A stretch of DNA of 64,000 nt from Methanosarcinales archaeon. GTDB taxonomy: Archaea; Halobacteriota; UBA148; JAUWXC01. The stretch spans positions 634,330 through 698,329 of the forward strand of contig CP061209.1 of the NCBI GenBank assembly GCA_026016205.1, read 5' to 3'. Below, piece after piece: positions 10,112 through 52,783 of this stretch. The notes below the pieces were generated by a model, which saw only the letters and a list, made by a program, of their open reading frames with translations, did not search any database and was not told where the DNA came from. Position 1 is the stretch's first letter. Each line of letters begins with the position of its first letter. The position numbers and the translations under genes are program-made.

Positions 10112-10119
10112 GCGGCCAA

Positions 10120-10204: not shown

Positions 10205-10267
10205 TAAAGAGTATATCCCGTTTAGATATTTGTGTATTGCTACTTATAGAGGTTGTTCTAATTGTGT

Positions 10268-10577: not shown

Positions 10578-10640
10578 AGTTTAAAACATAAATGCTAAGA
10601 AGCAATAAACTTATCGCAGTATACGCGATATGGAATCAAC

Positions 10641-27342: not shown

Positions 27343-27416
27343 TGGGGGCGGTAGGATTTGAACCCACGATCGGCTGGTCTGGAGCCAGCTGCCCTTCCGG
27401 ACTAGGCCACGCCCCC
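27343..27416 (-). tRNA. tRNA-Trp(CCA), no intron
   Basis: Reverse complement GGGGGCG TG GCCT AGTCCGGAA GGGC A GCTGG CTCCAGA CCAGC CGATC GTGGG TTCAAAT CCTAC CGCCCCC A. Confidence 0.9.
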
Positions 27417-27422
27417 ATAAGA

Positions 27423-27522
27423 TAGTCCCGGGCGGATTCGAACCGCCGTCGCGGGCTTTCTTCACAACCCTTAAAAAGGTTGTGCCAAAGGCCCGCAGGA
27501 TTGACCACTACCCTACGGGACT
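27423..27522 (-). tRNA. tRNA-Gln(UUG) with a canonical 27-nt intron (plus coordinates ~27458..27484)
   Basis: Reverse complement AGTCCCG TA GGGT..ATCC .. CGGGC CTTTGG[CACAACCTTTTTAAGGGTTGTGAAGAA]A GCCCG .. GGCGG TTCGAAT CCGCC CGGGACT A. The BHB is clean: central helix CTTT/GAAG, 3-nt bulges GGC and AAA, inner helix ACAACC/GGTTGT. Confidence 0.85.
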
Positions 27523-27544
27523 ATACTTCGTTTAAGCGAATGCA

Positions 27545-27618
27545 TGGGCCCGGCCGGATTCGAACCGGCGATCTCCGCCGTGTAAAGGCGATGTCATAAC
27601 CAACTAGACCACGGGCCC
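27545..27618 (-). tRNA. tRNA-Val(UAC)
   Basis: Near-identical body to the Val(CAC) gene at 10038; anticodon loop TTTACAC. Confidence 0.9.
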
Positions 27619-27752
27619 TTGCCCAAAGAGATGATATACGATTACTCATAAATCTTTTGGGTTTTATACCGGCAGAACAAAGTAAATTGTGGCAAGCGAG
27701 AGAAATGCCATTATAAGCAGGACTGCCACTATTCTCTCTTCTTTCTGCATCA

Positions 27753-27880
27753 TGGACCGGTCGGGATTTGAACCCGAGGCTTATAGGCGCAGTCAAAGCG
27801 CTCTCTACCAATAAGGATGTCATGCTCTTTCAGACCATGACATTTGCCAAGGTAGCGATCTACCCCTGATCTACCGGCCC
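27753..27880 (-). tRNA. tRNA-Ala(GGC) interrupted by two introns: 34 nt at 37/38 (27811..27844) and 22 nt at 45/46 (27781..27802)
   Basis: Reverse complement GGGCCGG TA GATC AGGGGTA GATC G CTACC TTGGCA[34 nt]T GGTAG AG[22 nt]GCC TCGGG TTCAAAT CCCGA CCGGTCC A. It has the G3:U70 Ala identity pair. The mature length is 72 nt, and both inserts show bulge(3)-helix(4)-bulge(3) geometry. Confidence 0.7.
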
Positions 27881-27988
27881 GAGTATATTCTTGAATGGCA
27901 AGATTTTACAATAAATCTATCGGTGAGGGGCTTTTTATATAAAGAAAACTTTAACTATATGCTGCCCTAACTCTGTGGCAATTCATCT

Positions 27989-28080
27989 GGGCCCGTAGCT
28001 TAGTCTGGTTGGAACTCGTAAGAGCAATATGCGCACGGCTGATAACCGTGAGGTCGGGCGTTCAAATCGCCCCGGGCCCA
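27989..28080 (+). tRNA. tRNA-Ile(GAU) with a 17-nt non-canonical intron in the D-arm (28014..28030)
   Basis: GGGCCCG TA GCTT AGTCTGGTTG GA[ACTCGTAAGAGCAATAT]GC G CACGG CTGATAA CCGTG AGGTC GGGCG TTCAAAT CGCCC CGGGCCC A. Removing the insert restores D-stem GCTT/GAGC. BHB: GTTG/CAAT helix, bulges GAA and ATG, inner CTC-GTAA-GAG hairpin. Confidence 0.7.
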
Positions 28081-36494: not shown

Positions 36495-37016
36495 ATGCGC
36501 TCGCTGAATTGGAATGAGAACATAGCCAGTTTCGCACTGACATTCATCATCTTATTCGCGCTCTGGGCAGCCTTGTCGACATTTTTTGATATTGTGCATT
36601 TATCCTTGGGCCTAATATGCTCTTTTCTCGTGGCATACGTATCTTATGACCTGCTGATACGGCCCGAGGGCACTAAACACGTTTTGGCAGTTATAAAAAC
36701 CGCTGTCAAATCTATTCCATATTCATTCTGGCTTTTAGCGCAAATCATCAAAGCCAATGTCGATGTGGTGATGATTATCCTCAACCCCAGATTGCCGATA
36801 TCCCCTGAAATTGTCAAGTTTGATTCGAAACTGCCGAACGATGTGGCACTCGCCACACTGGCTAACTCAATCACTCTGACCCCGGGGACGTTAACGCTTG
36901 ACATAGACGAGAAAAAGACATACTATGTTCACTGTCTGGCGAAACGGCATGGGGACAGTCTTCTTGAAGGAACAATGCAATCATATGTAGCACGCGTATT
37001 TGGAGGCAAAGAATGA
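36495..37016 (+). CDS. mrpE: Mrp-type cation/proton antiporter subunit E
   Basis: LANSITLTPGTLTLDI is the MnhE signature. Confidence 0.8.
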   Translation: MRSLNWNENIASFALTFIILFALWAALSTFFDIVHLSLGLICSFLVAYVSYDLLIRPEGTKHVLAVIKTAVKSIPYSFWLLAQIIKANVDVVMIILNPRLPISPEIVKFDSKLPNDVALATLANSITLTPGTLTLDIDEKKTYYVHCLAKRHGDSLLEGTMQSYVARVFGGKE

Positions 37017-37279
37017 TCGAACCATTTTTGCTCACAGCACTGCTGCTGGTTTTTGCATCAGTATTATGCCTCTATAGAACTGTTAAAGGGCCAACCGCAC
37101 CTGACAGGATTGTAGCCGTCAATGTGATAGCTACCTGTACGATAGTCGTACACGTTCTCATCGCCTTTATAGGCAATCAACCGATGTTCGTCGACATCGC
37201 CATGACGTATGCGCTCTTGAACTTCCTGGTCACGCTTGTCGCTGCTCGATATCTTGCCACAGGGAGTGTGTTTACATGA
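37013..37279 (+). CDS. mrpF: Mrp-type antiporter subunit F
   Basis: 88 aa, 3 TM; LYRTVKGPTAPDRIVA is typical of MnhF. Confidence 0.8.
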   Translation: MIEPFLLTALLLVFASVLCLYRTVKGPTAPDRIVAVNVIATCTIVVHVLIAFIGNQPMFVDIAMTYALLNFLVTLVAARYLATGSVFT

Positions 37280-37629
37280 GTGTTCTGTTAATTCTTTCAA
37301 CTATTTTCCTCCTCGCGGGGTCTTTCTTCTTCATCGTGGGCTCGATAGGTTTGAACAGGCTGCCAGATGTGTACACGAGATTGCATGCAACGACAAAATG
37401 CGATACTCTCGGGCAGGCGCTGGTGCTGCTTGGCGTAATATTTTATGATGGGGCGACGTTTACGAGCGTGAAGATTTTGCTTATCATTGTATTCGTCTTA
37501 GTAGCGAATCCTACGGCTGCGCATGCTCTGGCAAAAGGTGCATACTTACATGGTGTAAAGCCGTGCGATGTTACGAGTCTTGACATGTACAAAGAAGAGG
37601 CGAAGAGGATAAAGAGGCGATTAAAATGA
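37276..37629 (+). CDS. mrpG: Mrp-type antiporter subunit G
   Basis: GSIGLNRLPDVYTRLHATTKCDTLG is the MnhG signature. Confidence 0.85.
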   Translation: MSVLLILSTIFLLAGSFFFIVGSIGLNRLPDVYTRLHATTKCDTLGQALVLLGVIFYDGATFTSVKILLIIVFVLVANPTAAHALAKGAYLHGVKPCDVTSLDMYKEEAKRIKRRLK

Positions 37630-37871
37630 TTTGGTTGCTCAATATTGCACTTTTGATGCTTTTAGTTGCTACCGCCATTGCGGTAGTCGTTAATAAAGAC
37701 CTGCTCGCTGCAGCGATTACATTTTCTATCTATAGTTTTATCATGGCGATGCTATACACGCAGCTCAACGCTCCTGATGTGGGACTGACGGAGGCTGCTG
37801 TAGGGGCAGGAGCTACGACTGTTCTGTTTATAATAGCCATATCAAAGACGTCCAGGAGGGAAGAAGATTGA
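37626..37871 (+). CDS. DUF4040 / MbhD-like small membrane subunit (equivalent to part of the MrpA C-terminal region)
   Basis: 81 aa; YTQLNAPDVGLTEAAVGAG. Confidence 0.7.
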   Translation: MIWLLNIALLMLLVATAIAVVVNKDLLAAAITFSIYSFIMAMLYTQLNAPDVGLTEAAVGAGATTVLFIIAISKTSRREED

Positions 37872-38134
37872 AGCTTGCCCCCCTTATCGTGGTACTGATT
37901 ATCGGCGCAACGCTCGCCGTAGCGGTGGCAGGCATGCCAGCATTTGGCAGTTCAGATGCACCGGCATACACGCATGTCGCATCAAGGTATCTTGAAAAAG
38001 GCGTCGAGGAGACTGGTGTTGGCAATATAGTAACTGCCATTGTCGTATATTACAGGGGATATGATACATTTGGCGAGGTTACGGTCATATTTACTGCTGG
38101 AGCAGCGGTCATCGCGCTTCTCGGGAGGGAGTAA
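37868..38134 (+). CDS. MbhE-like small membrane subunit (N-terminal piece of MnhB)
   Basis: NIVTAIVVYYRGYDTFGEVTVIF motif. Confidence 0.7.
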   Translation: MKLAPLIVVLIIGATLAVAVAGMPAFGSSDAPAYTHVASRYLEKGVEETGVGNIVTAIVVYYRGYDTFGEVTVIFTAGAAVIALLGRE

Positions 38135-38135
38135 C

Positions 38136-38576
38136 TTGCCAGAGTTGTTCGAGGATGTAATCGTACGAACGATTGCAAGGCTGATGACACCATTCATACA
38201 GTTGTTTGCCCTCTACGTCCTCATGCACGGCCATGCTACACCAGGCGGAGGTTTTCAAGCGGGCGTGATGATGGCGGCCAGTTTTATATTAATTGCCATA
38301 GCACTCGGCTTGCAGGAGGCAAAGGACAGGGTCAAGCAGAAGGCGAGATTGCCCCTGGAAAGCTTCGGTCCTCTGAACTTTGTGGTAATAGGCATCATAT
38401 GCATGGCCTGCGGCGGCTACTATCTACAATATACGACAGTGCCGCTTTTGCCCTCTTTGCAGGCAGTAGGCGCGATCCTGATATCAGCAGTTGAGGTGGG
38501 CATTGGCGTTACGGTCATGGCGATGGTAACAACGATATTCTTCTCCATGGCGGGTGGTAAACATGATACCAGTTGA
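38136..38576 (+). CDS. mrpB: Mrp-type antiporter subunit B (MnhB domain)
   Basis: LMHGHATPGGGFQAGV motif. Start placed at the in-frame TTG (38136) right after the upstream stop, not at the track TTG (38040). Confidence 0.75.
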   Translation: MPELFEDVIVRTIARLMTPFIQLFALYVLMHGHATPGGGFQAGVMMAASFILIAIALGLQEAKDRVKQKARLPLESFGPLNFVVIGIICMACGGYYLQYTTVPLLPSLQAVGAILISAVEVGIGVTVMAMVTTIFFSMAGGKHDTS

Positions 38577-38940
38577 ATTTGAGTTTCTGCTCAGGCATTA
38601 TAACTACTGGACGTCTGTAATCCTTGTTATGATAGGGCTCTACACCATGATCGTGAAGAAGAATCTAATTAAAAAATTCATGGGACTAAACATCGTCGAG
38701 ACTGCCACATTTCTTTTTTACATCTCCATGGGTGATGTGGAAGGGGGGGTTGCACCCGTCATAGTACACGGCGAGCATGCCGCTGAGCACGTGGTATATG
38801 TGAATCCACTGCCATCCGTGCTGATACTCACGGCAATAGTCGTCGCCCTATCTACGACAGCGCTTGCACTTACATTGGCAATCAAAATATACGAAAAATA
38901 TGGAACGCTTAACTCGGAAAGAATTCTGGAGCTGATGTGA
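38554..38940 (+). CDS. mrpC: Mrp-type antiporter subunit C (NuoK-like)
   Basis: 128 aa, 3 TM; GLNIVETATFLFYI and LTAIVVALSTTALALTL. Confidence 0.8.
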   Translation: MVNMIPVEFEFLLRHYNYWTSVILVMIGLYTMIVKKNLIKKFMGLNIVETATFLFYISMGDVEGGVAPVIVHGEHAAEHVVYVNPLPSVLILTAIVVALSTTALALTLAIKIYEKYGTLNSERILELM

Positions 38941-40418
38941 TGAACGTATTATTCCATCTTCCCATCATCGTGATTTTGATACCGTTAACGGCTGCGTACC
39001 TCATGCCGTTAGTGGGACATAAATGGAAAAAATGGTGCAATTCCCTTGCAGTAGTCGCATTGGCTCTTTCTTTTGTGGCGTCACTCGTACTCGCGAGGCT
39101 TGTGCTGGTAAATGGACCCATGCACTATTATATGGCAGGATTTATGCCCCCCTGGGGTATTGAGCTGGTAGTGGATTATCTGGGCGCATACATGTGCGTC
39201 GTCATATCATTTATCACCCTACTAGTCGCATTGTACTCTAAGGAGTACATTACCAAAGAACTGTCAGAACAAAGAAGGCCCCAGTATTATACCCTGCTTT
39301 TGTTGTTAACCGGCTCTATGATGGGCGCCTCGATTACAGGAGACTTATTTAATTTGTTCGTTTGCTTTGAAATCTTATCAATATCATCTTATGCACTTGT
39401 GTCCATCAGCGGAGAGGGTAAAGCGCTCCTTGCAGGTTATAAATACCTGCTAATAGGCGCTATTGCATCCAGCTTCCTACTGCTTGGCATAGGGCACCTG
39501 TATATATCTACCGGCACCCTGAATATGGCGGATATGTTCGTAAGGCTGCCACCTCTCTACAGTTCCTGGACCGTTCTCGCTGCGCTGGCTCTGCTAATCG
39601 TGGGCCTCAGCATAAAAACCGCGTTGTTCCCATTGCACGTATGGCTGCCGGATGCGTATACTAATGCGCCGTGTTCTGTGCCAGTCCTATCAACCCTGGT
39701 TATAAAGGTGGGAGCCGTAGCAATCATCCGGCTCCTATTTAACATATTCCAGCCATCATTTGTCATAAATACAATCCCAATGACGGCTGCCCTCTCATAT
39801 ATAGCAGCAATTGCAATAATTGTGGCCTCGTTATTCGCGATATCTCAAACAGACATCAAAAGGATGTTGGCATACTCGTCTGTGTGCCACGTGGCATACG
39901 TGATACTCGGCATTGGAGTAGGCACGGAACTTGGCTTGACAGGAGGGATGCTGCATATTATCAATCACGCTGTCACAAAAGGATGTTTATTCTTTTGTGC
40001 AGGTGCGATTATCTACAAGACTGGAACAAGGAATATCAGGGAGTTTGGCGGTCTGGGGAGAAAGATGCCGGTTACGATGGGGGCGTTCACCTTGGCTGCG
40101 CTCTCGATGGTAGGCATTCCTCCGACGAATGGATTTATGAGCAAGTTCTACATCGCACTTGCTGCTATGACCGCAGGAAGACCTGAGTGTGCAATCGTTA
40201 TATTATTGAGCAGTTTGCTGAATGCCATATACTTTATAAGGGTGATAAACATCACATACTTTGGCATTCCAGAAGAGGAGATCGAGATTGATGAAGCCCC
40301 GCCCACGATGTTGTATCCAATAGTAATGTTGGCTGCATGCTGCCTGATATTGGGCTTTGGTGTAGAGTTGCCGCTCACGATACTGAGACCTGCGGCTCAA
40401 GTGCTGTTAGGAGTCTAG
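38937..40418 (+). CDS. mrpD: Antiporter-like subunit MrpD/NuoN-M family, copy 1
   Basis: 493 aa, ~14 TM; FPLHVWLPDAY and KRMLAYSSV motifs. Confidence 0.85.
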   Translation: MMNVLFHLPIIVILIPLTAAYLMPLVGHKWKKWCNSLAVVALALSFVASLVLARLVLVNGPMHYYMAGFMPPWGIELVVDYLGAYMCVVISFITLLVALYSKEYITKELSEQRRPQYYTLLLLLTGSMMGASITGDLFNLFVCFEILSISSYALVSISGEGKALLAGYKYLLIGAIASSFLLLGIGHLYISTGTLNMADMFVRLPPLYSSWTVLAALALLIVGLSIKTALFPLHVWLPDAYTNAPCSVPVLSTLVIKVGAVAIIRLLFNIFQPSFVINTIPMTAALSYIAAIAIIVASLFAISQTDIKRMLAYSSVCHVAYVILGIGVGTELGLTGGMLHIINHAVTKGCLFFCAGAIIYKTGTRNIREFGGLGRKMPVTMGAFTLAALSMVGIPPTNGFMSKFYIALAAMTAGRPECAIVILLSSLLNAIYFIRVINITYFGIPEEEIEIDEAPPTMLYPIVMLAACCLILGFGVELPLTILRPAAQVLLGV

Positions 40419-40464
40419 AAAATAAAATATAGCATCAAGGATAACTAATCACGAAGGTGTGTGT

Positions 40465-41955
40465 ATGGAAGAAATAGCTATATCAATCTTGCCTGTTATA
40501 GCAGTATTTTTGCCCCTGTTGAGCACACCGCTGGTGTTTTTTGCGAGAGAGGCAATTTCCGAGGATTTTAGGGATTATTTTGCAATAGGGGTAAGTGTGA
40601 TAGCCTTCTTGGCTGTCATGGCAATGATTCCCACCCTGATGGGCGGCAAAATAATTGAATACCTACTCATCTCTAAAGACATAACTCCGGTCGAGGTCGC
40701 ATTTAGGGTAGACCATCTTAGTTTGATAATGGCGATATTCGCCTCCTTTGTCTGGATGGTAGCTACGATTTACTCGAGGGAATATATGGATCAGGAGCAT
40801 GCGAAGGATAGATACTACGCGTTCATGATGCTAACCCTCGGCGCTACATTGGGCATTGTGCTTACAAAGAATTTGTTCGCGTTGTACATATTCTTTGAGA
40901 TGATGGCGTTGTCGTCGTATGTGCTCGTTATACATGAGGAGACCAATGAAGCGCTATCGGCGGGCAAAAAATATCTGTTCATTTCCATCGGATTTGGGCT
41001 TTTCCTCTTGCTATCGATACTCGTAACGTATATGATAGCGGGCACGCTGGATCTAACTCAAATCGGCATTCTGCCACATGAAGGCGCATCAAAATTGGCA
41101 TATGGTATCCTTTTCTTTACGTTTATAGCTGGCTTTGGCGCAAAGGCTGGTATGTTTCCCGTACATGTATGGCTTCCTGATGCACATCCAGTCGCACCCT
41201 CGCCTGCGTCTGCACTACTTTCCGGCGTGATGATCGAGAGCGGCGCATATGGCATTATTAGGGTGATCTACAATGTATTCGGTCCCGAACTCGTGTCTGA
41301 AATAGGAGTTCATATAATACTGGCAATTCTCGCTGGAATATCGATATTCCTAGGCAGTGCAGTAGCGATTTCTCAAAAGGAGATAAAGAGGATGCTTGCG
41401 TATTCGAGCATAAGCCAGATAGGCTATCCACTCCTCGGCGCTGCGCTGCTAACTCCCAGTGGACTGGAGGGTGCCATCTTTCATCTCTTTAACCATGCAT
41501 TCATGAAGGGGTGCCTCTTTCTCTGCGCCGGTGCCATCATCCATCAAACCGGGCTCAGAAACATCGACGATTTTGGTGAGTTGGGCCAGAAGATGCCGGT
41601 TACGATGTTATGTTTCACAATAGCAGCACTTTCAATGATAGGCGTTCCTCCTCTGAACGGTTTTGTCAGCAAGTGGATACTTTGTCTCGGTGCACTCGAA
41701 GCAGGCAATATCGTCCTTATGTTGTTCGTAGCAGTGCTATTGTTGAGCAGTCTGATGAACGCCATCTATTATATGCCAGTCATCATCAAGGCGTTCTTTG
41801 GTCCTAGGTCCAAGAAGCCGGTGAAAAAAGTCGATCCTAGACCGAGCATGTTAATACCAATTATCGCTCTTGCACTTGGTTGTATAATATTCGGAATATT
41901 CGCAAATCTACCGCTGTCAATCATAGAGTTAGCGGTTCACGCACTACTTGGATAG
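40465..41955 (+). CDS. mrpD: Antiporter-like subunit MrpD/NuoM family, copy 2
   Basis: GAKAGMFPVHVWLPDAHPVAPSPASALLSG and KRMLAYSSISQ. ATG at 40465 is preceded by gaaggtg; the track GTG is at 40459. Confidence 0.85.
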   Translation: MEEIAISILPVIAVFLPLLSTPLVFFAREAISEDFRDYFAIGVSVIAFLAVMAMIPTLMGGKIIEYLLISKDITPVEVAFRVDHLSLIMAIFASFVWMVATIYSREYMDQEHAKDRYYAFMMLTLGATLGIVLTKNLFALYIFFEMMALSSYVLVIHEETNEALSAGKKYLFISIGFGLFLLLSILVTYMIAGTLDLTQIGILPHEGASKLAYGILFFTFIAGFGAKAGMFPVHVWLPDAHPVAPSPASALLSGVMIESGAYGIIRVIYNVFGPELVSEIGVHIILAILAGISIFLGSAVAISQKEIKRMLAYSSISQIGYPLLGAALLTPSGLEGAIFHLFNHAFMKGCLFLCAGAIIHQTGLRNIDDFGELGQKMPVTMLCFTIAALSMIGVPPLNGFVSKWILCLGALEAGNIVLMLFVAVLLLSSLMNAIYYMPVIIKAFFGPRSKKPVKKVDPRPSMLIPIIALALGCIIFGIFANLPLSIIELAVHALLG

Positions 41956-41967
41956 AGGAGAAAAACA

Positions 41968-43461
41968 ATGGAGCCAGTATACTCGATAAGACCAGCCCTT
42001 GCAATTGCCATTTCGCTGACTTGTGCAGGGTTGATCGGTCTCACGGGCAAAAGGCATAGGAACTTTAGAGAATTCTGGACTCTTTCCGCAGCTGTATCCA
42101 AATATATTATAGTTATATCAATGTTCCCCCTTGTTTATCATGGCGGCGAATACATATTCTCCACGTTTGAAATCATACCCGGTGTTGGTTTTGATTTGAG
42201 GGTCGATGCCTTCAGCATGTTCTTTTCATTTTTGTCATCCTTCCTGTGGATCGTGACATCGGTATATTCGATAGGCTATATGAGGTCGCTCCATGAGCAC
42301 TCACAAACTAGGTATTACTTATCGTTTGCCGTGTGTGTAGCATCTACCATCGGCATAGCCTTTGCAGACAACCTGTTCACCTTATTCATATTCTATGAAA
42401 TGTTGACTATAGCGACGTATCCTCTGATTATCCATGAGGAAACGCCAGAGGCGATGGCTGCCGGCAGGAAGTATCTGATATATCTTTTGGGTGCAAGTCT
42501 ATTCATCCTGCTCGGAATGGTCATAACATACTCCTTAACTGGAACTCTCACCTTTTCTAATAGTGGCATATTAGCTGGTCATGGCACACCTGAGACGTTG
42601 AAGACACTGTTTGTACTCTTTGTCATCGGTTTTGGTACGAAGGCTGCCATTATGCCGCTTCACGGCTGGCTACCAAGTGCCATGGTGGCACCTACGCCAG
42701 TCAGCGCCTTGCTACATGCTGTAGCGGTCGTAAAGGCAGGCGTTTTTGGACTCATACGGGTGATATATTTCATTTATGGCACGGATCTCATGAGGGAGCT
42801 TGGTCTTGGTTTGCCCCTTGCCATCGCGGCATCAATCACAATCATCGTAGCGTCGCTGTTTGCGCTGGCGCAGGACAATCTCAAGTTAAGGTTAGCGTAT
42901 TCTACAGTGAGCCAGTTATCCTACATCATCTTGGGTGTTGCACTGCTGACACCAAGCGCTGCCACTGGAGGAATAATACACATTGCAAACCAGGCATTCA
43001 TGAAGATAACGCTGTTCTTCTGTGCTGGTGCGATTTTCGTCCAGACCGGCAAAAAGAACATCAGCGAGATGCACGGCATTGGAAAGACTATGCCCCTCAC
43101 GATGATATGCTTCGCGATATGTGCCATGGGTATGGCTGGCGTTCCGCCAATGGCCGGATTCATAACCAAATGGTATTTGTGTTTAGGGGCCTTGGAAGCA
43201 GGACAACCAATATTCGTAGCCGTGCTATTAACGAGTGCGTTGCTGAACATAGCCTACTTCTTCCCTCCCATCTATAATGCATTCTTTATGGAGCCGGAAA
43301 AGGGAGCCAAGAAGGATAACGACCCTACCTGGTGGCTATTGCTGCCCATCGTGCTATGTGCGCTGGCATCCATATTCTTAGGGTTAATACCGAGAGCGCC
43401 ATTTACACCCCTCAGGCTAGCGTCGGTCGTAGTTGAACAGATCATGGGAGGTCTGTTATGA
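41968..43461 (+). CDS. mrpD: Antiporter-like subunit MrpD/NuoM family, copy 3
   Basis: GTKAAIMPLHGWLPSAMVAPTPVSALLHA and LRLAYSTVSQ. Confidence 0.85.
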   Translation: MEPVYSIRPALAIAISLTCAGLIGLTGKRHRNFREFWTLSAAVSKYIIVISMFPLVYHGGEYIFSTFEIIPGVGFDLRVDAFSMFFSFLSSFLWIVTSVYSIGYMRSLHEHSQTRYYLSFAVCVASTIGIAFADNLFTLFIFYEMLTIATYPLIIHEETPEAMAAGRKYLIYLLGASLFILLGMVITYSLTGTLTFSNSGILAGHGTPETLKTLFVLFVIGFGTKAAIMPLHGWLPSAMVAPTPVSALLHAVAVVKAGVFGLIRVIYFIYGTDLMRELGLGLPLAIAASITIIVASLFALAQDNLKLRLAYSTVSQLSYIILGVALLTPSAATGGIIHIANQAFMKITLFFCAGAIFVQTGKKNISEMHGIGKTMPLTMICFAICAMGMAGVPPMAGFITKWYLCLGALEAGQPIFVAVLLTSALLNIAYFFPPIYNAFFMEPEKGAKKDNDPTWWLLLPIVLCALASIFLGLIPRAPFTPLRLASVVVEQIMGGLL

Positions 43462-45956
43462 GCGATATATCTCACGAAGTTGCTCACGGGATGGTGGAAG
43501 CGGCGCATCTGCATATATCATCGGTTCCAGTGTGGGCAATAGCAGTTCCATTGATTGGTGCTATTCTAGCATACGTCATCGGGAGGCGGTCAGAGAGGGC
43601 AAGGGATGTTTTAGCGGTAGCGATAACCATACTCACCTTTGGCTTAGTGGCCTCTATGTGCCCCGTCATGCTGTCTGGAGGTAAAATCGCATACACACTT
43701 CACTCACCTTTCACCCTATACGAACCCACATTTGTAGTGGATCCTTTTGCCTTCTTGATTGCCCTGGTTACATCCTTCGTCTGGATGCTTGCCACAATCT
43801 ATGCATTGAGTTACATGACTCATGAGCATGCCAGAAACAGATTTTACCTATTCTCATTGCTCTCCTTGGCGGTTGACCTTGGAGTTCTCCTGGCTGGCGA
43901 CTTGTTCACCATGTATATCTTCTTTGAATTACTGGCGATATTCTCTTATGTGCTGGTTATCCATGTGGAAATGCCAGAGGCGATGGCTGCCGGCAGGAAG
44001 TATTTATTTATAGGGATCACGGGGGGGCTATGCCTTTTGGCGGCTATTTTCCTGTTGTACCATTATTCTGGAACACTCGAAATCACCTCACTTGCCCAAG
44101 CACTAGAAGGAATAGGATACCTGAGGTACCTAATCTGCGCGTTAATGCTCATAGGTTTTGGCGCAAAGGCTGGTATGTTTCCCGTACATGTATGGCTTCC
44201 TGATGCACATCCAGTCGCGCCAACCCCAGCGTCTGCACTACTTTCCGGTGTAATGATTAAAGCGGGTGCGTATGGCATCTTCAGGACTGTTAATATGATA
44301 TTTACGCCACCTGCTGAAGTGGCAGAACACGGTGCAACCGTCATTGAACATGCTGCAACCTGGGCTACGGCCACTAACATAGGATATGTGGTGATATGGA
44401 TAGGGATAATCACGATGTTTTTTGCTGTCATTCTGGCTTTAATGCAGGAAAACTCAAAAAGGATGTTGGCATATCACAGCATCAGCCAGATGGGCTATAT
44501 CATAATGGGGGCTGGATGCGCTGCCTATCTTGGGGCTGATGGAGCACTGGGCCTTGCTGGAGGGCTATACCATATTATAAACCATGCCCTGTTCAAATCG
44601 TGCCTGTTCTTAACCGTAGGAGCTGTGTATTATCGAACGAACGAGTTAAATATGTACAAACTGGGCGGACTATGGAGGGAAATGCCATTCACGGCATTAG
44701 CCATGTTCGTTGCAGTCATGGGCATATCTGGAGTACCAGGATTTAATGGATTTGTGAGCAAGTCCCTGTTACATCATGCCATCGTTGAGTCCTATCATCA
44801 CCATGGCGATCCTTTGTTGGGCTTTGCAGAGATTATATTTGTAGTAACTGCTGGTGGCACTTTTGCCTCGAACATAAAAATGTTCATATTCACTTTTCTG
44901 GGCAAGAAACCAGATAATATCAAGAAAATAGGGAAAGTAGAACCAGCCCCACTGCCGATGAAGATTGCAATGGGCGCCTTGGTAGCATCGATTATTCTAA
45001 TAGGCATAATGCCCAATCTGCTGTTGAGTATAGTAGTTCCTGCTACAGGTCTTCATGCTTTCTCTTTGCATGGGATAGAGCATCTGGCAGAATACATGAC
45101 TCATCCTCTCCACTTCTTTACAGCAGAGGGTGTGCTGGTTGCAAGCACAGAATTGATGATAGGCGGCATCATATTCGTAACGGGTATACGCTTTGGGTGG
45201 TTCCACTGGGAGCACAAGATTCCGCGCTGGTTTGGTGTTGATTATTGGTATGGACAACTTGCCGATAAATTTCTATGGCTCTGCAAGAAACCGTTCACAG
45301 CATTCGACGCAGAGGTAGATAAAGCGTATCTAGCAGCAGCTAATGGCTTCCTCGGAATTGTGGAACCTTCTACCAAGCTTGATGAGGATATAAATAAGGC
45401 CTATGTAAAGGGCGCTAAAAAATTCCTCAAACTTGCAGGACCTGCTACGAAACTTGACAAGGATGTGGACAGGGCATATGTAAAGGGTGCTAAAGGATTC
45501 GTTGACTTTGCAAAAGGGCCTGCTACGAGGTTTGACAAGGGGGTGGATAAAGGTTATGTAAAGGGCGCAAAAGGAGCCGTCGCATTAGCCAGAAGGCCTG
45601 TTGCAAGAGCCAGAAGAGTGCACTTTACAGGGACGTACGACAAACTCACCACATTTGGCGCAGACCCAATTCCGACAATTGTAGTCCTCGTCTCCAACTG
45701 GTTTATGCAGATAAGCATGGCGCTCGTCGGGATTGTTGCGTATCCTTACGCTTTTGTTAACTATATCCTGGACTTAATAAGCAAAAAGTCTGGAGAGCCC
45801 ATCACGAGCATTAGCGAAAAAACACGCCAATTTAGGGAAACATATAAACCGACCATGCCCCATGTCGAGAGCATTGGATTTGCATTATTCATAGTGGCGG
45901 TCATGCTCACGATATATATCATATACATCGCGCTGGAATACTTCCTCCACTTTTAG
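43458..45956 (+). CDS. MrpA/NuoL-like antiporter subunit (832 aa) with a repeat-containing C-terminal arm and two terminal TM helices
   Basis: The N-terminal ~560 aa is antiporter-like (GAKAGMFPVHVWLPDAHPVAPTPASALLSG, KRMLAYHSISQ). Residues ~612-713 are four tandem 25-26-aa repeats, followed by two hydrophobic helices. Confidence 0.8.
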   Translation: MSDISHEVAHGMVEAAHLHISSVPVWAIAVPLIGAILAYVIGRRSERARDVLAVAITILTFGLVASMCPVMLSGGKIAYTLHSPFTLYEPTFVVDPFAFLIALVTSFVWMLATIYALSYMTHEHARNRFYLFSLLSLAVDLGVLLAGDLFTMYIFFELLAIFSYVLVIHVEMPEAMAAGRKYLFIGITGGLCLLAAIFLLYHYSGTLEITSLAQALEGIGYLRYLICALMLIGFGAKAGMFPVHVWLPDAHPVAPTPASALLSGVMIKAGAYGIFRTVNMIFTPPAEVAEHGATVIEHAATWATATNIGYVVIWIGIITMFFAVILALMQENSKRMLAYHSISQMGYIIMGAGCAAYLGADGALGLAGGLYHIINHALFKSCLFLTVGAVYYRTNELNMYKLGGLWREMPFTALAMFVAVMGISGVPGFNGFVSKSLLHHAIVESYHHHGDPLLGFAEIIFVVTAGGTFASNIKMFIFTFLGKKPDNIKKIGKVEPAPLPMKIAMGALVASIILIGIMPNLLLSIVVPATGLHAFSLHGIEHLAEYMTHPLHFFTAEGVLVASTELMIGGIIFVTGIRFGWFHWEHKIPRWFGVDYWYGQLADKFLWLCKKPFTAFDAEVDKAYLAAANGFLGIVEPSTKLDEDINKAYVKGAKKFLKLAGPATKLDKDVDRAYVKGAKGFVDFAKGPATRFDKGVDKGYVKGAKGAVALARRPVARARRVHFTGTYDKLTTFGADPIPTIVVLVSNWFMQISMALVGIVAYPYAFVNYILDLISKKSGEPITSISEKTRQFRETYKPTMPHVESIGFALFIVAVMLTIYIIYIALEYFLHF
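45291..45615 (+). repeat. In-frame tandem repeat, four units of 75/75/78/78 nt plus a degenerate fifth, inside the MrpA-like gene
   Basis: Units start at 45291, 45366, 45441 and 45519 (partial fifth at 45597). Example: cctgctacgaaacttgacaaggatgtggacagggcatatgtaaagggtgctaaa vs cctgctacgaggtttgacaagggggtggataaaggttatgtaaagggcgcaaaa. Confidence 0.9.
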
Positions 45957-46116: not shown

Positions 46117-46509
46117 TTAATGATGAGCATGTCTGCCCTCTACTGCATAAAACACCAGGAAAGCTGTCGCGACCATCATCACGACAAATGTTATGTATCC
46201 AATTACAGATGGCAAGTGCTCCATATATTCCGCTACTGCTTTTCCCCTAAGGATAAGAATGGCAATTGCGGCTATGATGGTGATTAGAATTGTAAATTCG
46301 ATGTCCTCTGCTTTGCCGGCATGTCTCGCATAAGCTGCCAGTAGCACTATGGTCACCAGCAGCGCTGCCCAGAAGGCCCAGTATAGCAGATGTAAAATCG
46401 TGGATGATATAGGTGGTCCCTGATGTACCTCATGCGAAACCTCAGCGGCAGCAAAGATAACTGGCGAGAATATATTAAAAACTGTAATAGTGGATAATAT
46501 CTTCATCAC
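46117..46509 (-). CDS. Hypothetical membrane protein with an N-terminal signal-like segment and a His-rich C-terminus
   Basis: 130 aa with 3-4 hydrophobic helices; no motif recognised. Confidence 0.45.
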   Translation of the reverse strand: MMKILSTITVFNIFSPVIFAAAEVSHEVHQGPPISSTILHLLYWAFWAALLVTIVLLAAYARHAGKAEDIEFTILITIIAAIAILILRGKAVAEYMEHLPSVIGYITFVVMMVATAFLVFYAVEGRHAHH

Positions 46510-46547: not shown

Positions 46548-47147
46548 CTATATTTCTTCCAGCAATGCCTTGATTCTCTTTCTCCTGAAAAAATCTTCCC
46601 GCTCCAGTTCTTCAAGATGCATCTCAATGTAACTTTGCGTTGCGCTGAGCTTGGGTATGAATATGTTCTCCAGCGCGTTGACCCTCCTTTTGGTCTTCTC
46701 TACCTCTTGGGCCAGCATTCTTATTGCGCCATCGCTCTCTGCCAGTTTGAGCACGTGCTTCAATACTTCTTCAAAGTAACTCGCTGCCTCGTCTAACTTT
46801 GCTGACGTGCCAGCGTAACCATATCCTCTTTCTTTACCCGCCTGAAGGGACACTTCCTCTATGATGGGGATCTTTGCACCCATTATACTCTTGGTGTCAA
46901 CTTCCACATCGGCCATCTCTGCAACTGAATAGGATGCATCCTCTACACCAGAGCGCCCCATTATCATTTGCGCCTCTGCCAAGGATTCATATGCCCCTTT
47001 GACTTTCACCCCTAACCCGCTCCTGAGGTCTCTGCGTGCATCTATCAACTTGAAGAATTCCATGACCAGTGCATCCCGCTTCTCCTCCAGCAGATTATGC
47101 CCTTTCTCAGCCAACGTTCGCCTTTTCCTTAATTTTAAAAGCTCCAT
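46548..47147 (-). CDS. atpD: A-type ATP synthase subunit D
   Basis: LAEKGHNLLEEKRDAL and the C-terminal LEELEREDFFRRKRIK. The true start may lie upstream of the first ATG (see findings). Confidence 0.85.
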   Translation of the reverse strand: MELLKLRKRRTLAEKGHNLLEEKRDALVMEFFKLIDARRDLRSGLGVKVKGAYESLAEAQMIMGRSGVEDASYSVAEMADVEVDTKSIMGAKIPIIEEVSLQAGKERGYGYAGTSAKLDEAASYFEEVLKHVLKLAESDGAIRMLAQEVEKTKRRVNALENIFIPKLSATQSYIEMHLEELEREDFFRRKRIKALLEEI

Positions 47148-47211
47148 CCGAGTCGGTCTGACTCCGCTGAGAATCTCCCTAGCCAGTTTTATCCACTCCT
47201 CTATACTTCAT

Positions 47212-48615
47212 TTAAACTTTCGTATATTTAGGATGATACTTTTTGATACATTCTGGGTCGATTCTCTTTAACTCGGATTCTGGAAGCATTGATAACAGAT
47301 TCCAAGCAATTTCAAGCGTTCTCTCAATCGATCTGTCTTCATCGATAGCCTGGTTCATGAACTCCCCTTCAAAGCGGTCAGAGAATGCCAGATAGGTTCT
47401 ATCAAGCTCGGTCAAAGCCTCCTCCCCTACGACTGCGACCAAATCCCGTAATTTTCGCCCCTCGGCGTATGCAGAATAAAGTTGGTCGTTTACATCAGCA
47501 TGGTCCTCTCTGGTTCGACCTTCGCCAATTCCGCCCTGCATCAACCGCGATAGGCACGGAAGAACATCGACTGGAGGATATATGCCTTTTCTACTAAACT
47601 CCCTGGACAGCACGATTTGTCCCTCTGTGATGTAACCTGTTAGGTCAGGGATTGGATGCGTTATGTCGTCGTCTGGCATCGTCAGCATCGGCATCTGAGT
47701 GATTGACCCTTTCTTTTCTTTTATTCTGCCGGCCCTTTCATAGATTGATGCAAGGTCAGTATACATGTAGCCGGGATATCCCCTTCGCCCTGGCACCTCT
47801 TCCCTAGCGGCTGCTATTTCCCTGAGCGCTTCACAGTAATTGGTCAGGTTGGTCAAAATGACGAGTATATGCATATCCTTCTCAAATGCAAGGTATTCTG
47901 CCGTAGTCAATCCCAACCTTGGAGTAATAATCCTCTCTATAGCAGGGTCGTCAGCAAGATTGAGGAACAGCACTGCTTTTTCTAAGGCACCTGTCCTCTC
48001 AAAGTCCCTGATGAAGAAACTCGCCTCTTCATGGGTAATTCCCATGGCAACAAACACGACTGCAAACTCCTCTTTTTTCCCCCGAACTTTTGCTTGTCTG
48101 GCTATTTGTGCTGCCAGTTCATTATGGGGCAATCCTGCACCGGAGAATATGGGGAGTTTCTGGCCCCTGACAAGCGTGTTCATGCCATCGATAGTTGAAA
48201 TACCTGTTTCGATAAAATCTCGCGGGAATTCCCTTGCACACGGATTAATTGGGGCACCATGTATATCTAGCACCTTTTCCGGGATGATAGGAGGGCCGCC
48301 ATCGATTGGCGTTCCGGTGCCGTTGAATACCCTTCCCAGCATCTCTACTGACACCGGGATCTTCATGGTTTCGCCAGTGAACCTGACTGCTGTTGTATCT
48401 GTATCCAGGTCATGCGTGCCTTCGAATACCTGTACGATTGCTTTGTTGGTCTGGGCTTCGAGCACCTGTCCTCTCCTTCTTTCGCCAGAGGGGGTCTTAA
48501 TCTCTACTACCTCTCCATACGCCACACCTGAAACGTTATCTACGACCATCAGCGGTCCACTTACCTCTGTTACAGTCGTATACTCCTTGCTTTTTGATAT
48601 CGCCATCTTGGTCAT
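47212..48615 (-). CDS. atpB: A-type ATP synthase subunit B
   Basis: 467 aa; the non-catalytic B-subunit pattern [25 protein letters not shown] and [15 protein letters not shown]. Confidence 0.95.
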
Positions 48616-50372
48616 CCCTCCATCTCTCTAAACTGAGCCGCCATCTCTTTTTCAATCTCTTCAAATTGCTTTTGATACTCTGCATCCGGAACAGTGCTCA
48701 TCCTGGCTAATTTGTCCTTGACTGGCATCTCCCTGATCTTCCCGATTGAAGCGCCCTTTTGAATTGCTTTATACATCAACTCGTTGAACTTCAACAGGAT
48801 TTCGAGCATCCTGTATTGTTTTTCTTTGGGGCAGTAGGTATCCACCTTGTGGAACGCATTTTGCATGAGGAATCCTTCTCTGATGGACTTCGCCCCATCA
48901 AGAGCGGCCTGGTCGCTTGCTGGAAGGGTATCCGGTCCCACTAACTGCACAATCTCCTGCAATTCACTCTCTTTCTGAAGTAATCTCATCGCCTCATTTC
49001 TCATCTCCCCCCATTTTGCCCCTACCTCTTTGTGCCACCAATCCTTGACATGGTCAACGTAAAGTGAATATGATTGCAGCCAGTTGATGGCAGGGAAATG
49101 GCGCTTGTTCGCCAGGTCAGCATCCAGCGCCCAGAAGACTTTCGTAATTCTGAGCGTGTTCTGCGTCACAGGCTCTGAGAAGTCCCCACCAGGGGGAGAT
49201 ACCGCCCCGATAACGGAGATCGAACCTACTTTCTCACCCTTTCCATGTAATATAGCGCGTCCAGAGCGTTCATAGAAATCTGCCAGCCTGGATGCAAGGT
49301 ATGCTGGATAGCCCTCCTCACCTGGCATCTCCTCTAACCTGCCAGAAATTTCCCTCATCGCTTCTGCCCACCTTGACGTGGAGTCAGCCATCAACGCAAC
49401 ATCATACCCCATGTCCCGGTAGTATTCTGCAAGCGTCATTCCTGTATACACGCTTGCATCTCGTGCTGCGACTGGCATGTTACTGGTATTGGCGATGAGT
49501 ATCGTTCTGTTCATCAGGGGCTCGCCGGTTTTTGGGTCTTCCAATGCAGGGAATTCCCTGAGGACATCTGCCATCTCGTTTCCTCTTTCACCGCATCCGA
49601 TATAGACGATTATATCCGCGTCTGCCCATTTTGCAAGCAACTGTTGTACCACAGTCTTTCCACTGCCAAAAGGACCCGGAATTGCAGCCGTTCCACCCTT
49701 CGCCACAGGGAAGAAGGTATCGATGACTCTCTGGCCAGTGATTAAGGGAACACTCGGATCCAGTTTCTTGGCATACGGCCTTCCTATTCTGACCGGCCAT
49801 TTCTGGAGCATCTGAATTTCCTTGACCCCTTCAGCCGTTTTTATTTTTGCTATGGTTTGCTCGATGGTATATTTGCCCTTGGAAGATATGTCAACAACTT
49901 TTCCCGCGACATCGGGCGGGACCAATATCCTGTGCTCGATTGTTTTTGTCTCCTGTACGACTCCCAATATGTCGCCGGGGCCCATGGTTTCGCCTTTTTT
50001 GGCAACAGGCGTAAAGTCCCATTTTTTATCCCGCTCCAGTGCAGGCACTTCGACCCCTCTTTTTATGAAGTCCCCCATCTGAACCTTGATTAAATCAAGG
50101 GGGCGCTGAATACCATCATAGATATTTCCAAGCAATCCTGGACCCAGTTCAACAGACAGCGGTATACCGGTCGGTATGACTTTCTCACCAGGGGTGACGC
50201 CGCCAGTTTCCTCATATACCTGTATTGTTGCTGTATCTTCGTCCAATCCAATTATCTCTCCAATTAATCGCTCAGTTCCCACGCGAACTAACTCATACAT
50301 CCTTGTGCCCCTCATGTTCTTGGCAGAAATGACGGGGCCCGCGACCCTGCTGATGATGCCTTCTTGTGTCAT
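48612..50372 (-). CDS. atpA: A-type ATP synthase catalytic subunit A
   Basis: P-loop [15 protein letters not shown] and [27 protein letters not shown]. Confidence 0.95.
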
Positions 50373-50695
50373 TTAACTTCACCTCTCTCCACATCGATGC
50401 CGACCGCTCTCCGAATCAATCTGTTTATGGGGTCGGTTGCTCTTGCCCCCTCTTTGCCTGGCACTTCAACTACAATTGGAAAAACCTCTTTTTTGACTTG
50501 AATCTTGTCCATGTACGGTCTGATGCTTTCTGCCAGGCTATCTAAAAGTATTATCACGCCTACCTCAGGGTCGACAAGAAAATGTTTTAACGCCTCTTCC
50601 GTTTCCTGGGGAGTTTCTACTACTCTCATCTTTTTCACTCCCGCAAGCGAGAAACCAAGTGTCATATTTCTATCTCCTATCACAGCCGCTTTCAT
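50369..50695 (-). CDS. atpF: A-type ATP synthase subunit F
   Basis: 108 aa; [20 protein letters not shown]; position between atpC and atpA. Confidence 0.85.
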
Positions 50696-51879
50696 ATGCC
50701 TTCCTCACATATCACGATATCCTTCATCTTTTCCAACGACATGCTCTCTCTAATTCCATGGAGCGCCGCCCTGATGTTCCTAACTTCGTAATCCTTTGCT
50801 ATTATAAACCTCATTATCGGCCCTACGTCGAAGGTGTTCTCTCTGGCAAACCCGAAGACCATGTGCAATAGGTGCCTATCAAAAATTGCCTCAAACGCGT
50901 AGATGCTCCCGCTTTTCTCGTATTCGGACATCGCCTTCTTGAGTAGGGGTACATACTTCGTCTTCTCAAGTGTTGAGACTATTTCTGCTACATCTCTGGA
51001 CTCAGCAACCTGAATGAGCATCCATGCTGGAAGAGTTCCACCTGGCAGCAGGTATTTTCGGGTTGTTTCAGGTTCAAAACCCTCCTTTTTGCCCCTTATG
51101 ACCACTTTTATATTGGTTACATCGACGTACGTGTCAACGAACTTGCTTATAGACGCAACCACCGATGCAGGGATTTTAGATGCAGATTCGCTGAGCCCTT
51201 GGAACACACATCCATCCAATGCCAGTTCCAGAGGCAGCATCGATCCAGTCTTCTCGTAATCGAGTAGGGCATTGGATAGCGTTTTCCCATATGCCGTATC
51301 TGACAGTATCTGGACGATTCTGTCCATGCTATCCGCCTCTGCCAGTTCTCCTATCAAATCTGGAGTGATATTCCCTACTGAAACCGTTTTTTTCTTAATC
51401 GCATCTGGAGATAGTCCTGCATTTTTGCCCTTTATGGCAACCTTCAACTGCTCCGCCTCGAACTTCGTCAGGTATGATTCCAAGAAGGGTTTTATGCACT
51501 CTGGCACTCTGGCAATGGTGTTTTTGTACGTTCTGAAAAGAGCCAGCTTTAGCGCCTTCTCGATTTCATCTGGGTCATCGCCAGTTACATCGAGTTTATA
51601 ACTATCTGCAATTCTTGAGATTACCTCGGAGACGTTTTTCGATTCCAAGAGTGGATGCATGTTGGTCGCAAGAACATAGGGCACACCAACTGCCCTGACC
51701 CTTGCGTTTGGATATGCAAAGCGCATGGCATTCACGAGTATTTGCGCTTTAGGGGCAATTATCTTCACGATGACGACGGCAAAGACTCCCAGCGCCATCA
51801 CATATAGCCATTCAATTAGTGCTACGCCCAAAAGTTTGTCAAATTGATTTAATAAATTGAGCAAATCACCGAGCATCAC
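50692..51879 (-). CDS. atpC: A-type ATP synthase subunit C, with a ~50-aa N-terminal hydrophobic extension
   Basis: Core begins at RFAYPNARVRA. The start (GTG/ATG at 51879/51876) overlaps the atpE stop. Confidence 0.8.
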   Translation of the reverse strand: MMLGDLLNLLNQFDKLLGVALIEWLYVMALGVFAVVIVKIIAPKAQILVNAMRFAYPNARVRAVGVPYVLATNMHPLLESKNVSEVISRIADSYKLDVTGDDPDEIEKALKLALFRTYKNTIARVPECIKPFLESYLTKFEAEQLKVAIKGKNAGLSPDAIKKKTVSVGNITPDLIGELAEADSMDRIVQILSDTAYGKTLSNALLDYEKTGSMLPLELALDGCVFQGLSESASKIPASVVASISKFVDTYVDVTNIKVVIRGKKEGFEPETTRKYLLPGGTLPAWMLIQVAESRDVAEIVSTLEKTKYVPLLKKAMSEYEKSGSIYAFEAIFDRHLLHMVFGFARENTFDVGPIMRFIIAKDYEVRNIRAALHGIRESMSLEKMKDIVICEEGI

Positions 51880-52484
51880 TTCTCACCGTACAAAATCCTT
51901 GATATCTCATGCCGCAACTCGTTACTTTGCCGTTCCAATATCGCTTCAAATGTATTGTTCACTATGACGTCGCCGGATTTTGACTTGACAACAACCCCGC
52001 CGATGGTATCGATGTCCTCTTTGCCAACACTGATTTTTAGGCCCTTCTTTGGCATGCCAGAGATTACTTTTTTAATGGCGCGTTTATCCTTCTTATTGCA
52101 TAGGAGGATAACGTCATTTCCTATTAACTTCGCTCCATCATCTATCGAATCTCTTAGAATATTTTCATATTTTTTCGTGTTTGCCAACTTGCTCAGCGCT
52201 TCCCTTGCCTCTGCAAAGCACCGGGAAATGACCTGGTCTTTAGCACCTATGACGGTTCGCATAGCATCGATTCTTGCTCCAGATTGGATTCTGTTAACTG
52301 ATGTATCAATGTCCTTCTTGCCCCTCTCGATTATCTTAGTGTGCTCTTGTTCACCCTGTCTTCTCGCCTCATCTAAGATCTTCTTTGCCTCTTGCATAGC
52401 ATCCGCTTTGATGTGCTGCATCTCTACTTTTGCATCGCTCTCAATCTTAGATATGATTTTATCTATGCCATTCATCTGACCCAC
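51876..52484 (-). CDS. atpE: A-type ATP synthase subunit E
   Basis: 202 aa with an N-terminal long charged helix; operon position. Confidence 0.85.
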   Translation of the reverse strand: MGQMNGIDKIISKIESDAKVEMQHIKADAMQEAKKILDEARRQGEQEHTKIIERGKKDIDTSVNRIQSGARIDAMRTVIGAKDQVISRCFAEAREALSKLANTKKYENILRDSIDDGAKLIGNDVILLCNKKDKRAIKKVISGMPKKGLKISVGKEDIDTIGGVVVKSKSGDVIVNNTFEAILERQSNELRHEISRILYGEK

Positions 52485-52533
52485 TCATGCTGTGCGCTAC
52501 GATGTACAGGAATGTTGATTTCTAACTCTTGCC

Positions 52534-52761
52534 TTAAATCAATCCCATGCCGACCATCAGCAGGATTGCTATCAGCAATGCATAGATGGCTTGCGTCTCT
52601 GGCAATACTGCAAAGACCACATTCTTACCGAATGCTTCTGGGTTTTCCGCGGTTGCTCCTACGGCAGCTGATGCTGCCATTCCTTGTGCCAGTGCAGAAC
52701 CCACGATTGCGATACCACATCCTATAATCGCAATCCCAAGGCCAATTCCAAATTCTACCAT
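52534..52761 (-). CDS. atpK: A-type ATP synthase proteolipid (c/K subunit), single hairpin
   Basis: 75 aa, two TM helices; helix-2 ion-binding motif LPETQAIY and a Q in helix 1 (ALAQGMA). Confidence 0.9.
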   Translation of the reverse strand: MVEFGIGLGIAIIGCGIAIVGSALAQGMAASAAVGATAENPEAFGKNVVFAVLPETQAIYALLIAILLMVGMGLI

Positions 52762-52783
52762 TTTCTACCTCCTTTTGTTTATT

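Follow-up and report, generated by a model that had tools for sequence, protein, structure and literature searches.

A stretch of 64,000 nucleotides (nt) of the genome of a Methanosarcinales archaeon (contig CP061209.1 of assembly GCA_026016205.1, positions 634,330 to 698,329), called the window in the following, was analyzed, and the analysis was focused on the last gene of an 11-gene cluster of the Mrp/Mbh type. This open reading frame (ORF; 43458-45956, plus strand) encodes a protein of 832 amino acids (aa), which contains four in-frame tandem repeat units of 25-26 aa in its C-terminal arm. The units probably constitute most of the lateral helix (HL), an amphipathic helix, of a stand-alone Mrp complex with four pumping subunits. 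This helix would have been enlarged by duplication of a unit of seven helical turns, and it would act as a strap, the length of which is coupled only loosely to how many MrpD subunits are present.

According to this reading, the arm would leave the antiporter core after transmembrane helix 15 (TM15) and would hold the row of subunits together, like the HL of complex I, of Mrp and of the membrane-bound sulfane reductase (MBS). It would have grown via in-frame tandem duplication of a unit of 75-78 bp. Because 25 residues are about seven alpha-helical turns, the gain or loss of a unit would alter the length without turning the hydrophobic face from the membrane, and, as the face stays in phase, the copy number would be easy to change. 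The length would be constrained loosely, i.e., it would provide enough reach across the MrpD row and yet go beyond the canonical 25 aa per subunit, and the unit count would not be a one-to-one ruler. The excess length could follow a zigzag path on the surface, extend over the module of small subunits, or loop into the cytoplasm.

Tandem units in the C-terminal arm

The 832-aa protein has an antiporter-like core, as had been noticed in a preliminary description of this DNA. The domains Proton_antipo_N (PF00662, E 1.1e-06) and Proton_antipo_M (PF00361, E 1e-61) were detected. The core comprises residues 1-588 (43458-45221, plus strand) and resembles NuoL and the N-terminal part of MrpA, with a 14-TM antiporter fold followed by TM15. 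It was modelled by AlphaFold2 (AF2) with predicted local distance difference test (pLDDT) values mostly above 90, and the assignment is also based on Foldseek.

The four units comprise residues 612-713 (45291-45596), and their lengths are 25, 25, 26 and 26 aa. The unit starts that had been noticed before (45291, 45366, 45441 and 45519) turned out to be exact; they are codon-aligned and correspond to residues 612, 637, 662 and 688. All units are encoded on the plus strand. Unit 1 (PFTAFDAEVDKAYLAAANGFLGIVE, residues 612-636, 45291-45365) matched the unit profile with 22.4 bits, unit 2 (PSTKLDEDINKAYVKGAKKFLKLAG, residues 637-661, 45366-45440) with 36.5 bits, unit 3 (PATKLDKDVDRAYVKGAKGFVDFAKG, residues 662-687, 45441-45518) with 31.5 bits, and unit 4 (PATRFDKGVDKGYVKGAKGAVALARR, residues 688-713, 45519-45596) with 27.2 bits. 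At the DNA level a period of 78 nt was detected by Tandem Repeats Finder, with scores of 188 and 173. The DNA identity among units 2-4 is 63-73%, with 73% for the pair of units 3 and 4, and unit 1 shares 53-56% with each of them. At the protein level, autocorrelation at a lag of 25 gave 24 identities at 77 positions, and the BLOSUM score was matched by none of 5000 shuffled sequences (z = 10.2). An alternating super-repeat of two units, which would indicate a helical hairpin, was rejected, because the units are most like their neighbours, not like every second unit, and the autocorrelation signal at a lag of 50/51 was weaker than that at a lag of 25.

The base of the arm, which precedes unit 1, is a degenerate "unit 0" (residues 589-611, PRWFGVDYWYGQLADKFLWLCKK, 45222-45290, plus strand). 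It contains the motif P-R-W-F-G-V-D-Y-W-Y, which is conserved as P-x-W-x-G-V-D-Y-W-Y in archaeal and bacterial relatives. The match of unit 0 to the unit profile is weak and is confined to its last eight residues (603-610) and the second half of the profile. On the other side of the units, a degenerate fifth unit had been postulated for residues 714-738 (PVARARRVHFTGTYDKLTTFGADPI, 45597-45671, plus strand). This segment is not recognised by the unit profile, has a hydrophobic moment (muH) of 0.12 (p = 0.78), and was modelled mostly as coil with a pLDDT below 50. At 15 of 25 positions it is identical to the equivalent segment of the relative P0002, and it is a separately conserved non-repeat linker instead of a fifth unit.

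Downstream of the linker, two terminal TM helices had been proposed. Two hydrophobic helices are indeed predicted, but it is uncertain whether the first one crosses the membrane. It comprises residues 739-775 (45672-45782, plus strand; AF2 helix 737-775, hydropathy peak 1.92), ends in a conserved Y-P-Y-A motif, and may span the membrane as a TM helix or be embedded in its surface. In relatives such as P0006 and P0015 this segment has a polar counterpart, and in the relative Met12 it is missing. The second one is the C-terminal transmembrane anchor (residues 801-830, 45858-45947, plus strand; AF2 helix 801-830, hydropathy peak 2.73), and this terminal TM was present in every full-length relative inspected.

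Position, predicted helicity and amphipathicity of the arm

The AF2 model is a single-chain model of the 832-aa protein that was built on an alignment of 75 sequences (mean pLDDT 82, predicted template modelling score 0.78). When the whole model was used in a Foldseek search, the best matches were MrpA chains (7qru_A and 6z16_A) over about 850 columns, i.e., the full length, followed by NuoL/NdhF chains, with a probability of 1.00. The repeats are placed between the core with TM15 and the C-terminal membrane anchor. The arm was predicted to be helical with a pLDDT of about 50-60. Helices comprise residues 556-579, 594-659, 664-684 and 690-711 and, after the coil linker, 737-775, 785-796 and 801-830. 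The arm helix is broken solely at the two G-P-A-T junctions, at which Gly precedes Pro, and it is unbroken through the E-P-S-T junction.

Units 2-4 are each amphipathic, with muH values of 0.45 (shuffle p = 0.004), 0.53 (p = 0.002) and 0.51 (p = 0.008), respectively. When residues 612-713 were treated as a single helix, the moment had a sharp peak of 0.376 at 100 degrees per residue and was 0.18 or lower at other angles, e.g., 0.084 at the coiled-coil periodicity of 105 degrees. The phases of the hydrophobic faces of the units lie within 49-132 degrees. Because 25 residues are 6.94 turns, the hydrophobic face does not change sides from one 25-aa unit to the next. For the two 26-residue units a phase shift of about 80 degrees is expected, precisely at the junctions where the helix is broken in the AF2 model. 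The lateral helix of E. coli NuoL served as a control and had muH values of 0.15-0.42 by the same measure, with a higher mean hydrophobicity. The position of the units corresponds to that of the lateral helix in NuoL and MrpA, and the previous proposal of a lateral arm is thus well supported by the position after TM15, the predicted helicity, the in-phase amphipathicity and the best model matches (MrpA and NuoL).

By eye, the motif G-V-D-Y-W-Y of unit 0 resembles G-F-D-W-L-Y of E. coli, and the units resemble F-D-x-x-V-I-D. That the units are copies of the canonical HL motif of NuoL is, however, unproven. A regular expression of the canonical HL motif matched 2 of 156 tails of L-like proteins. 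In three relatives with a different C-terminus (P0012, residues 757/783; P0023, residues 693/719; P0124, residues 658/684) the sequence FDxxV[IV]DGxVN occurs twice, exactly 26 residues apart and just before the last TM, so that a further 26-aa period is present in this element. The scores of these segments with the unit profile were no better than those of 2-47% of shuffled sequences, and their likeness to the units of the window is statistically unsupported.

Several of the structural results weigh against the units being a lateral helix. The pLDDT of units 2-4 is just 48-62. A PDB sequence search with the arm gave only chance matches (a viral nucleocapsid and a designed ankyrin repeat protein, DARPin) and no match to a solved structure, and the unit profile had no match on the HL of E. 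coli NuoL. In addition, the mean hydrophobicity of units 2-4 is -0.10 to -0.17, compared to +0.1 to +0.4 in the E. coli HL. The units are more polar and may therefore sit above the membrane, and not in its surface.

The polarity of units 2-4, which are highly charged, and the low pLDDT of the arm would also fit an explanation that we regard as rather unlikely, namely that the repeats are for the most part a helical extension exposed to solvent in the cytoplasm, which would serve as a spacer, in dimerisation or in the binding of a partner, and that only unit 0 and unit 1 are canonical HL-like. The arm is longer than needed for spanning the MrpD subunits, and in MBS the HL also takes part in the dimer interface (Yu et al., PMC7684303), both of which speak for such an extension. 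So do relatives with three MrpD from Actinomycetota/Coriobacteriia (loci L008-L012 and L023, e.g., L008:8882-11533), in which the arm base of unit 0 and unit 1 is kept and the tandem repeats are replaced by about 300 aa that are highly charged and apparently helical, before the terminal TM is reached. However, the hydrophobic face of the window units stays in phase over 100 residues, as is needed by a helix on one surface, and a moment peak at the coiled-coil periodicity is lacking. Moreover, a membrane anchor terminates the arm, which is therefore held at the membrane on both sides.

Unit turnover and unit number in relatives

Relatives from both archaea and bacteria, with overall identities of 38-81%, carry the same 25-aa units at the corresponding position. 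The core D-x-x-[VI]-[DN]-x-x-Y and the amphipathic pattern are kept in every unit across archaea and bacteria. As the units also occur in distant relatives, they are old and not an artefact of assembly or of slippage; the latter had been considered before for the case that the repeats were absent from close relatives. A search of 1.84 billion representatives with residues 589-738 gave 16 matches. One of these, a 4340-aa ankyrin-repeat protein, was judged spurious, as it has a period of 33 aa and does not match the unit profile. The loci listed in the metagenome and genome scans are mostly distant relatives, and the comparison within the close clade is based on a handful of loci.

The units were compared one by one with those of P0002, which is 81% identical overall, with 92% identity in the core versus 57% in the arm. 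Units 1 and 2 of the window are orthologues of units 2 and 3 of P0002, while units 3 and 4 of the window both match unit 4 of P0002. P0002 has an extra unit 1 next to unit 0. Unit 2 of the window is identical to unit 3 of P0002 at 22 of 25 aa and at 95% of the nucleotides. Both proteins end up with four units, and their arms have lengths of 150 and 151 aa. The equal arm length despite the turnover of units hints at a length constraint in these two lineages.

The fast evolution of the arm compared to the core, and the unit numbers from 1 to 7 among relatives, which do not track the gene content, would also be accounted for if the copy number were largely neutral. In that case replication slippage would act on a tolerated linker, and the units would have no function beyond joining the core to the anchor. 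The 73% DNA identity of units 3 and 4, which indicates a fairly recent duplication, is in accordance with slippage. Nevertheless, we consider neutrality improbable, because in both archaea and bacteria every unit retains the conserved core and the amphipathic pattern, the reading frame is preserved in all cases, unit 2 is nearly unchanged compared to its orthologue in P0002, and two sister lineages with different indels have arrived at the same total length.

For a comparison of the unit number with the MrpD number, the gene contexts of 12 relatives and of at least 160 scanned loci were read; antiporter-like genes were identified with a hidden Markov model (HMM) of the core and units with a unit HMM. 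Three MrpD are accompanied by four units in the window, P0002 and P0014, by 4-5 units in P0006, and by about one unit in Met12 (P0007), which has an arm of 95 aa. Two MrpD are accompanied by one unit in P0035, three in P0015, 4-5 in P0008, five (by inspection) in L031, 5-6 in P0110, six in P0078 and about seven in P0083. L120 has one MrpD and about six units. The idea of one repeat per subunit spanned, which had been put forward together with the lateral arm, did not survive this survey, as unit number and MrpD number do not track each other one-to-one. In two archaeal sister pairs (P0035 to P0014 and P0015 to P0006) units were gained together with the third MrpD, but the gain was 2-3 units per MrpD.

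A loose trend was seen in that the C-terminal extension of the terminal L-like gene is longer when more antiporter-like genes lie upstream of it (Spearman rho 0.49, p = 3e-5, for 66 clusters at 60% identity among the loci listed). Among these loci the median extension was 133, 143, 180 and 258 aa for 0, 1, 2 and 3 upstream antiporter-like genes, respectively, with a very wide spread. These data do not show a scaling of the 2M type, with one increment of about 26 aa for each extra antiporter-like subunit. They fit a minimum-length requirement with a variable excess.

The numbers and lengths also include points that are difficult for a lateral helix as a strap. In E. coli NuoL, 75 aa lie between TM15 and TM16 for three antiporter-like subunits, i.e., 25 aa per subunit, and by this standard four subunits need about 100 aa. 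Counted from the conserved motif, the arm of the window extends over about 150 aa before the next hydrophobic helix is reached, and over about 220 aa before the last TM. It is about 55 aa longer than that of the Met12 relative (about 95 aa), which likewise has three MrpD. Other close relatives have six units (L004, Methanocellales) or at least five (P0121), so that the counts in the close clade are 4, 4, at least 5 and 6 and do not track the MrpD number. Bacterial relatives with two MrpD have 5-7 units.

Some of the loci deviate in gene content. In the Met12-type loci, which depart most in repeat number, the last MrpD is separated from the L-like gene by an additional ORF of 105-114 aa (L002:9669-9986, L003:9276-9593 and L001:9642-9986), which apparently contains three TM-like stretches and which is absent from the window. 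In the P0004 cluster (L085:2232-13840) the genes are ordered E, F, G, MbhD, MbhE, B, C, D, D, L (740 aa, with a short arm), D and L (at least 644 aa), so that five antiporter-like genes are present, two of which encode L-like subunits. A bacterial cluster (L051:1101-13059) contains, after two MrpD, a row of three L-like genes (676, 694 and 670 aa), all of them with an arm and a terminal TM of their own, and repeat units are found in the last one only. An Rnf operon is located immediately upstream of two bacterial relatives (L090:1-12289 and L120:1847-11188). In L120 the small Mrp subunits and one MrpD have been lost and the L-like gene with its units is retained; this cluster may be decaying.

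A further reading, which we also think improbable, is that the units are true docking modules and that the arm is as long as the real assembled complex. In one possible version the arm would pass the three MrpD and then the modules MbhD/E-MnhB-MrpC and MrpEFG, and it would clamp the whole complex (roughly estimated at 200 Å or more). In a second possible version some MrpD would be present in several copies, so that the antiporter-like subunits of the complex would outnumber those encoded by the operon. If this version were true, the repeat number (4-7) would predict a stoichiometry that is missed by gene counts.

In its strict form, the earlier idea of one repeat per subunit is a modular ruler, in which each unit of 25-26 aa docks on one antiporter-like subunit and the number of units equals the number of subunits spanned. 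A helix of 25-26 residues is about 38 Å long by our own arithmetic, and E. coli NuoL, with its measured 25 aa per subunit, has the same length quantum. The 26-aa insertion that is reported for an extra NuoM or MrpD2 (PMC9040806) is of this length as well. The core D-x-x-[VI]-[DN]-x-x-Y in every unit suggests one contact that is made repeatedly. Furthermore, when units of at least 10 bits were counted, seven loci with complete context fitted a unit number of MrpD + 1, i.e., the window, L084, L086 and L087 (three MrpD, four units), L088 and L031 (two MrpD, three units) and L120 (one MrpD, two units). The strict ruler is nevertheless refuted and highly improbable, as inspection of L031 and L120 revealed five and about six units, the counts for P0008, P0110, P0078, P0083, Met12, L004 and P0121 do not obey it, and in the two sister pairs one MrpD goes along with 2-3 units instead of one.

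The gene cluster and its relation to known systems

The gene order of the cluster is MnhE, MrpF, MrpG, MbhD, MbhE, MnhB, NuoK-like MrpC, three Proton_antipo_M proteins and the 832-aa L-like protein. The seven small subunit genes are located at 36495-38940 (plus strand) and match PF01899, PF04066, PF03334, PF13244, PF20501, PF04039 and PF00420, respectively. As had been described before, three additional MrpD-like subunits are encoded upstream of the 832-aa gene, all on the plus strand. The first (493 aa, 38937-40418, PF00361 E 2.7e-66) has no C-terminal arm, as the core HMM covers it up to residue 490 of 493; the second (498 aa) is encoded at 40459-41955 (E 1.5e-71), and the third (497 aa) at 41968-43461 (E 1.2e-59), with a stop that overlaps the start of the 832-aa gene by 4 nt. 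MbhD and MbhE are the equivalent of the C-terminal domain of a fused MrpA (PMC7419157). The operon thus contains a complete set of MrpA-G equivalents, in which MrpA is split into MbhD, MbhE and the L-like protein, and MrpD is present three times. The order of the 11 genes is identical in L084, L086 and L087, and L002 has the same order plus one extra small ORF.

A redox module (hydrogenase or other) is not adjacent to the cluster: the upstream neighbours are ThiC and a metallo-beta-lactamase, and downstream an ORF without a Pfam match is followed by ATP synthase D and B. Judged from its genes, the cluster most likely encodes a stand-alone archaeal cation/proton antiporter of the Mrp (CPA3) type, with four antiporter-like subunits, i.e., the 832-aa protein and the three MrpD, and with a predicted antiport activity. 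The downstream ORF encodes 130 aa (46117-46509, minus strand), and an ORF of 128 aa is found at the same place in L084. The A/V-type ATP synthase operon (46548-54748, minus strand) was assigned by Pfam for D and B, and its ORF sizes match those of the L084 operon. Four archaeal relatives (L002, L084, L087 and L089) also have the Mrp cluster beside the ATP synthase, which looks like conserved synteny. The window also contains an archaeal signal recognition particle RNA (10267-10578, minus strand) and two small clusters of tRNA genes (10038-10204 and 27343-28080). The archaeal nature of the window is evident from this RNA and from the 832-aa protein, which is identical to a protein of a metagenome-assembled genome of the Methanosarcinales.

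The role of the lateral helix of the complex I type has long been debated, and it has been seen as a coupling rod or merely as a stabilising strap. The family of repeat arms offers a natural series for this question, because the helix consists of interchangeable seven-turn units, and close relatives differ in unit number, often with an unchanged set of pumping subunits. The series is thus a direct handle on how much helix is needed and what the excess does. For annotation, the results indicate that there are conserved archaeal Mrp complexes that stand alone and contain four antiporter-like subunits, and that they are often encoded beside an operon for an A-type ATP synthase.

The extension of the arm had been regarded as undescribed, which applies to one part of it only. 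That the length of the HL matches the subunit number has been published for MBS versus complex I (Yu et al., PMC7684303). A conserved 26-aa HL insertion in NuoL of the Nitrospira 2M complex I and in MrpD2 of Manganitrophaceae has been read as accommodating an extra pumping subunit, according to PMC9040806, which cites Chadwick 2018. The principle of a longer helix with more subunits is therefore already known. A lateral helix that is built of tandem repeats or has a variable copy number was not found in literature searches, which left most subscription journals outside their scope and are hence no proof of absence. What seems to be new is that the arm is built of tandem repeats, that its units turn over rapidly and that its length is in excess.

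Among the known systems, the Mrp antiporters have the same gene set, with equivalents of MrpC-G, MrpB and MrpD, and MrpA chains are the best full-length structural matches. In MrpA, too, a surface helix on the cytoplasmic side comes after the antiporter-like core, and TM helices anchor it at either end (TM15 and TM16; PDB 7qru and 6z16). In contrast to these antiporters, MrpA is split in the window, with the L-like part as the last gene and MbhD and MbhE as separate genes, and three MrpD are present instead of one. The arm of the window also differs from that of MrpA in that it consists of tandem copies of 25-26 aa, is several times longer, and has no detectable sequence similarity to it.

The nearest solved cores by sequence are MbhH (E 9.7e-66), the MBS subunit 6u8y_X (E 9.2e-54) and MrpA. 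MBH, the membrane-bound hydrogenase, and MBS (PDB 6cfw and 6u8y) share with the window the split of small subunits into MbhD and MbhE, and the HL of MbhI/MbsH' holds the pumping subunits together. However, they have one or two pumping subunits, a short HL, and a hydrogenase or sulfane-reductase module that is attached to them, and the window cluster has none of these features. The HL of NuoL/Nqo12/ND5 in complex I, including the 2M complex I and MrpD2 of Manganitrophaceae, is the same structural element, with about 25-26 aa per antiporter-like subunit, while the complex of the window lacks the neighbouring redox module. The HL cases described for complex I and the 2M complex I are single insertions and are not reported as tandem repeats, whereas the arm of the window is repetitive, varies between 1 and 7 copies among relatives, and goes beyond the canonical length.

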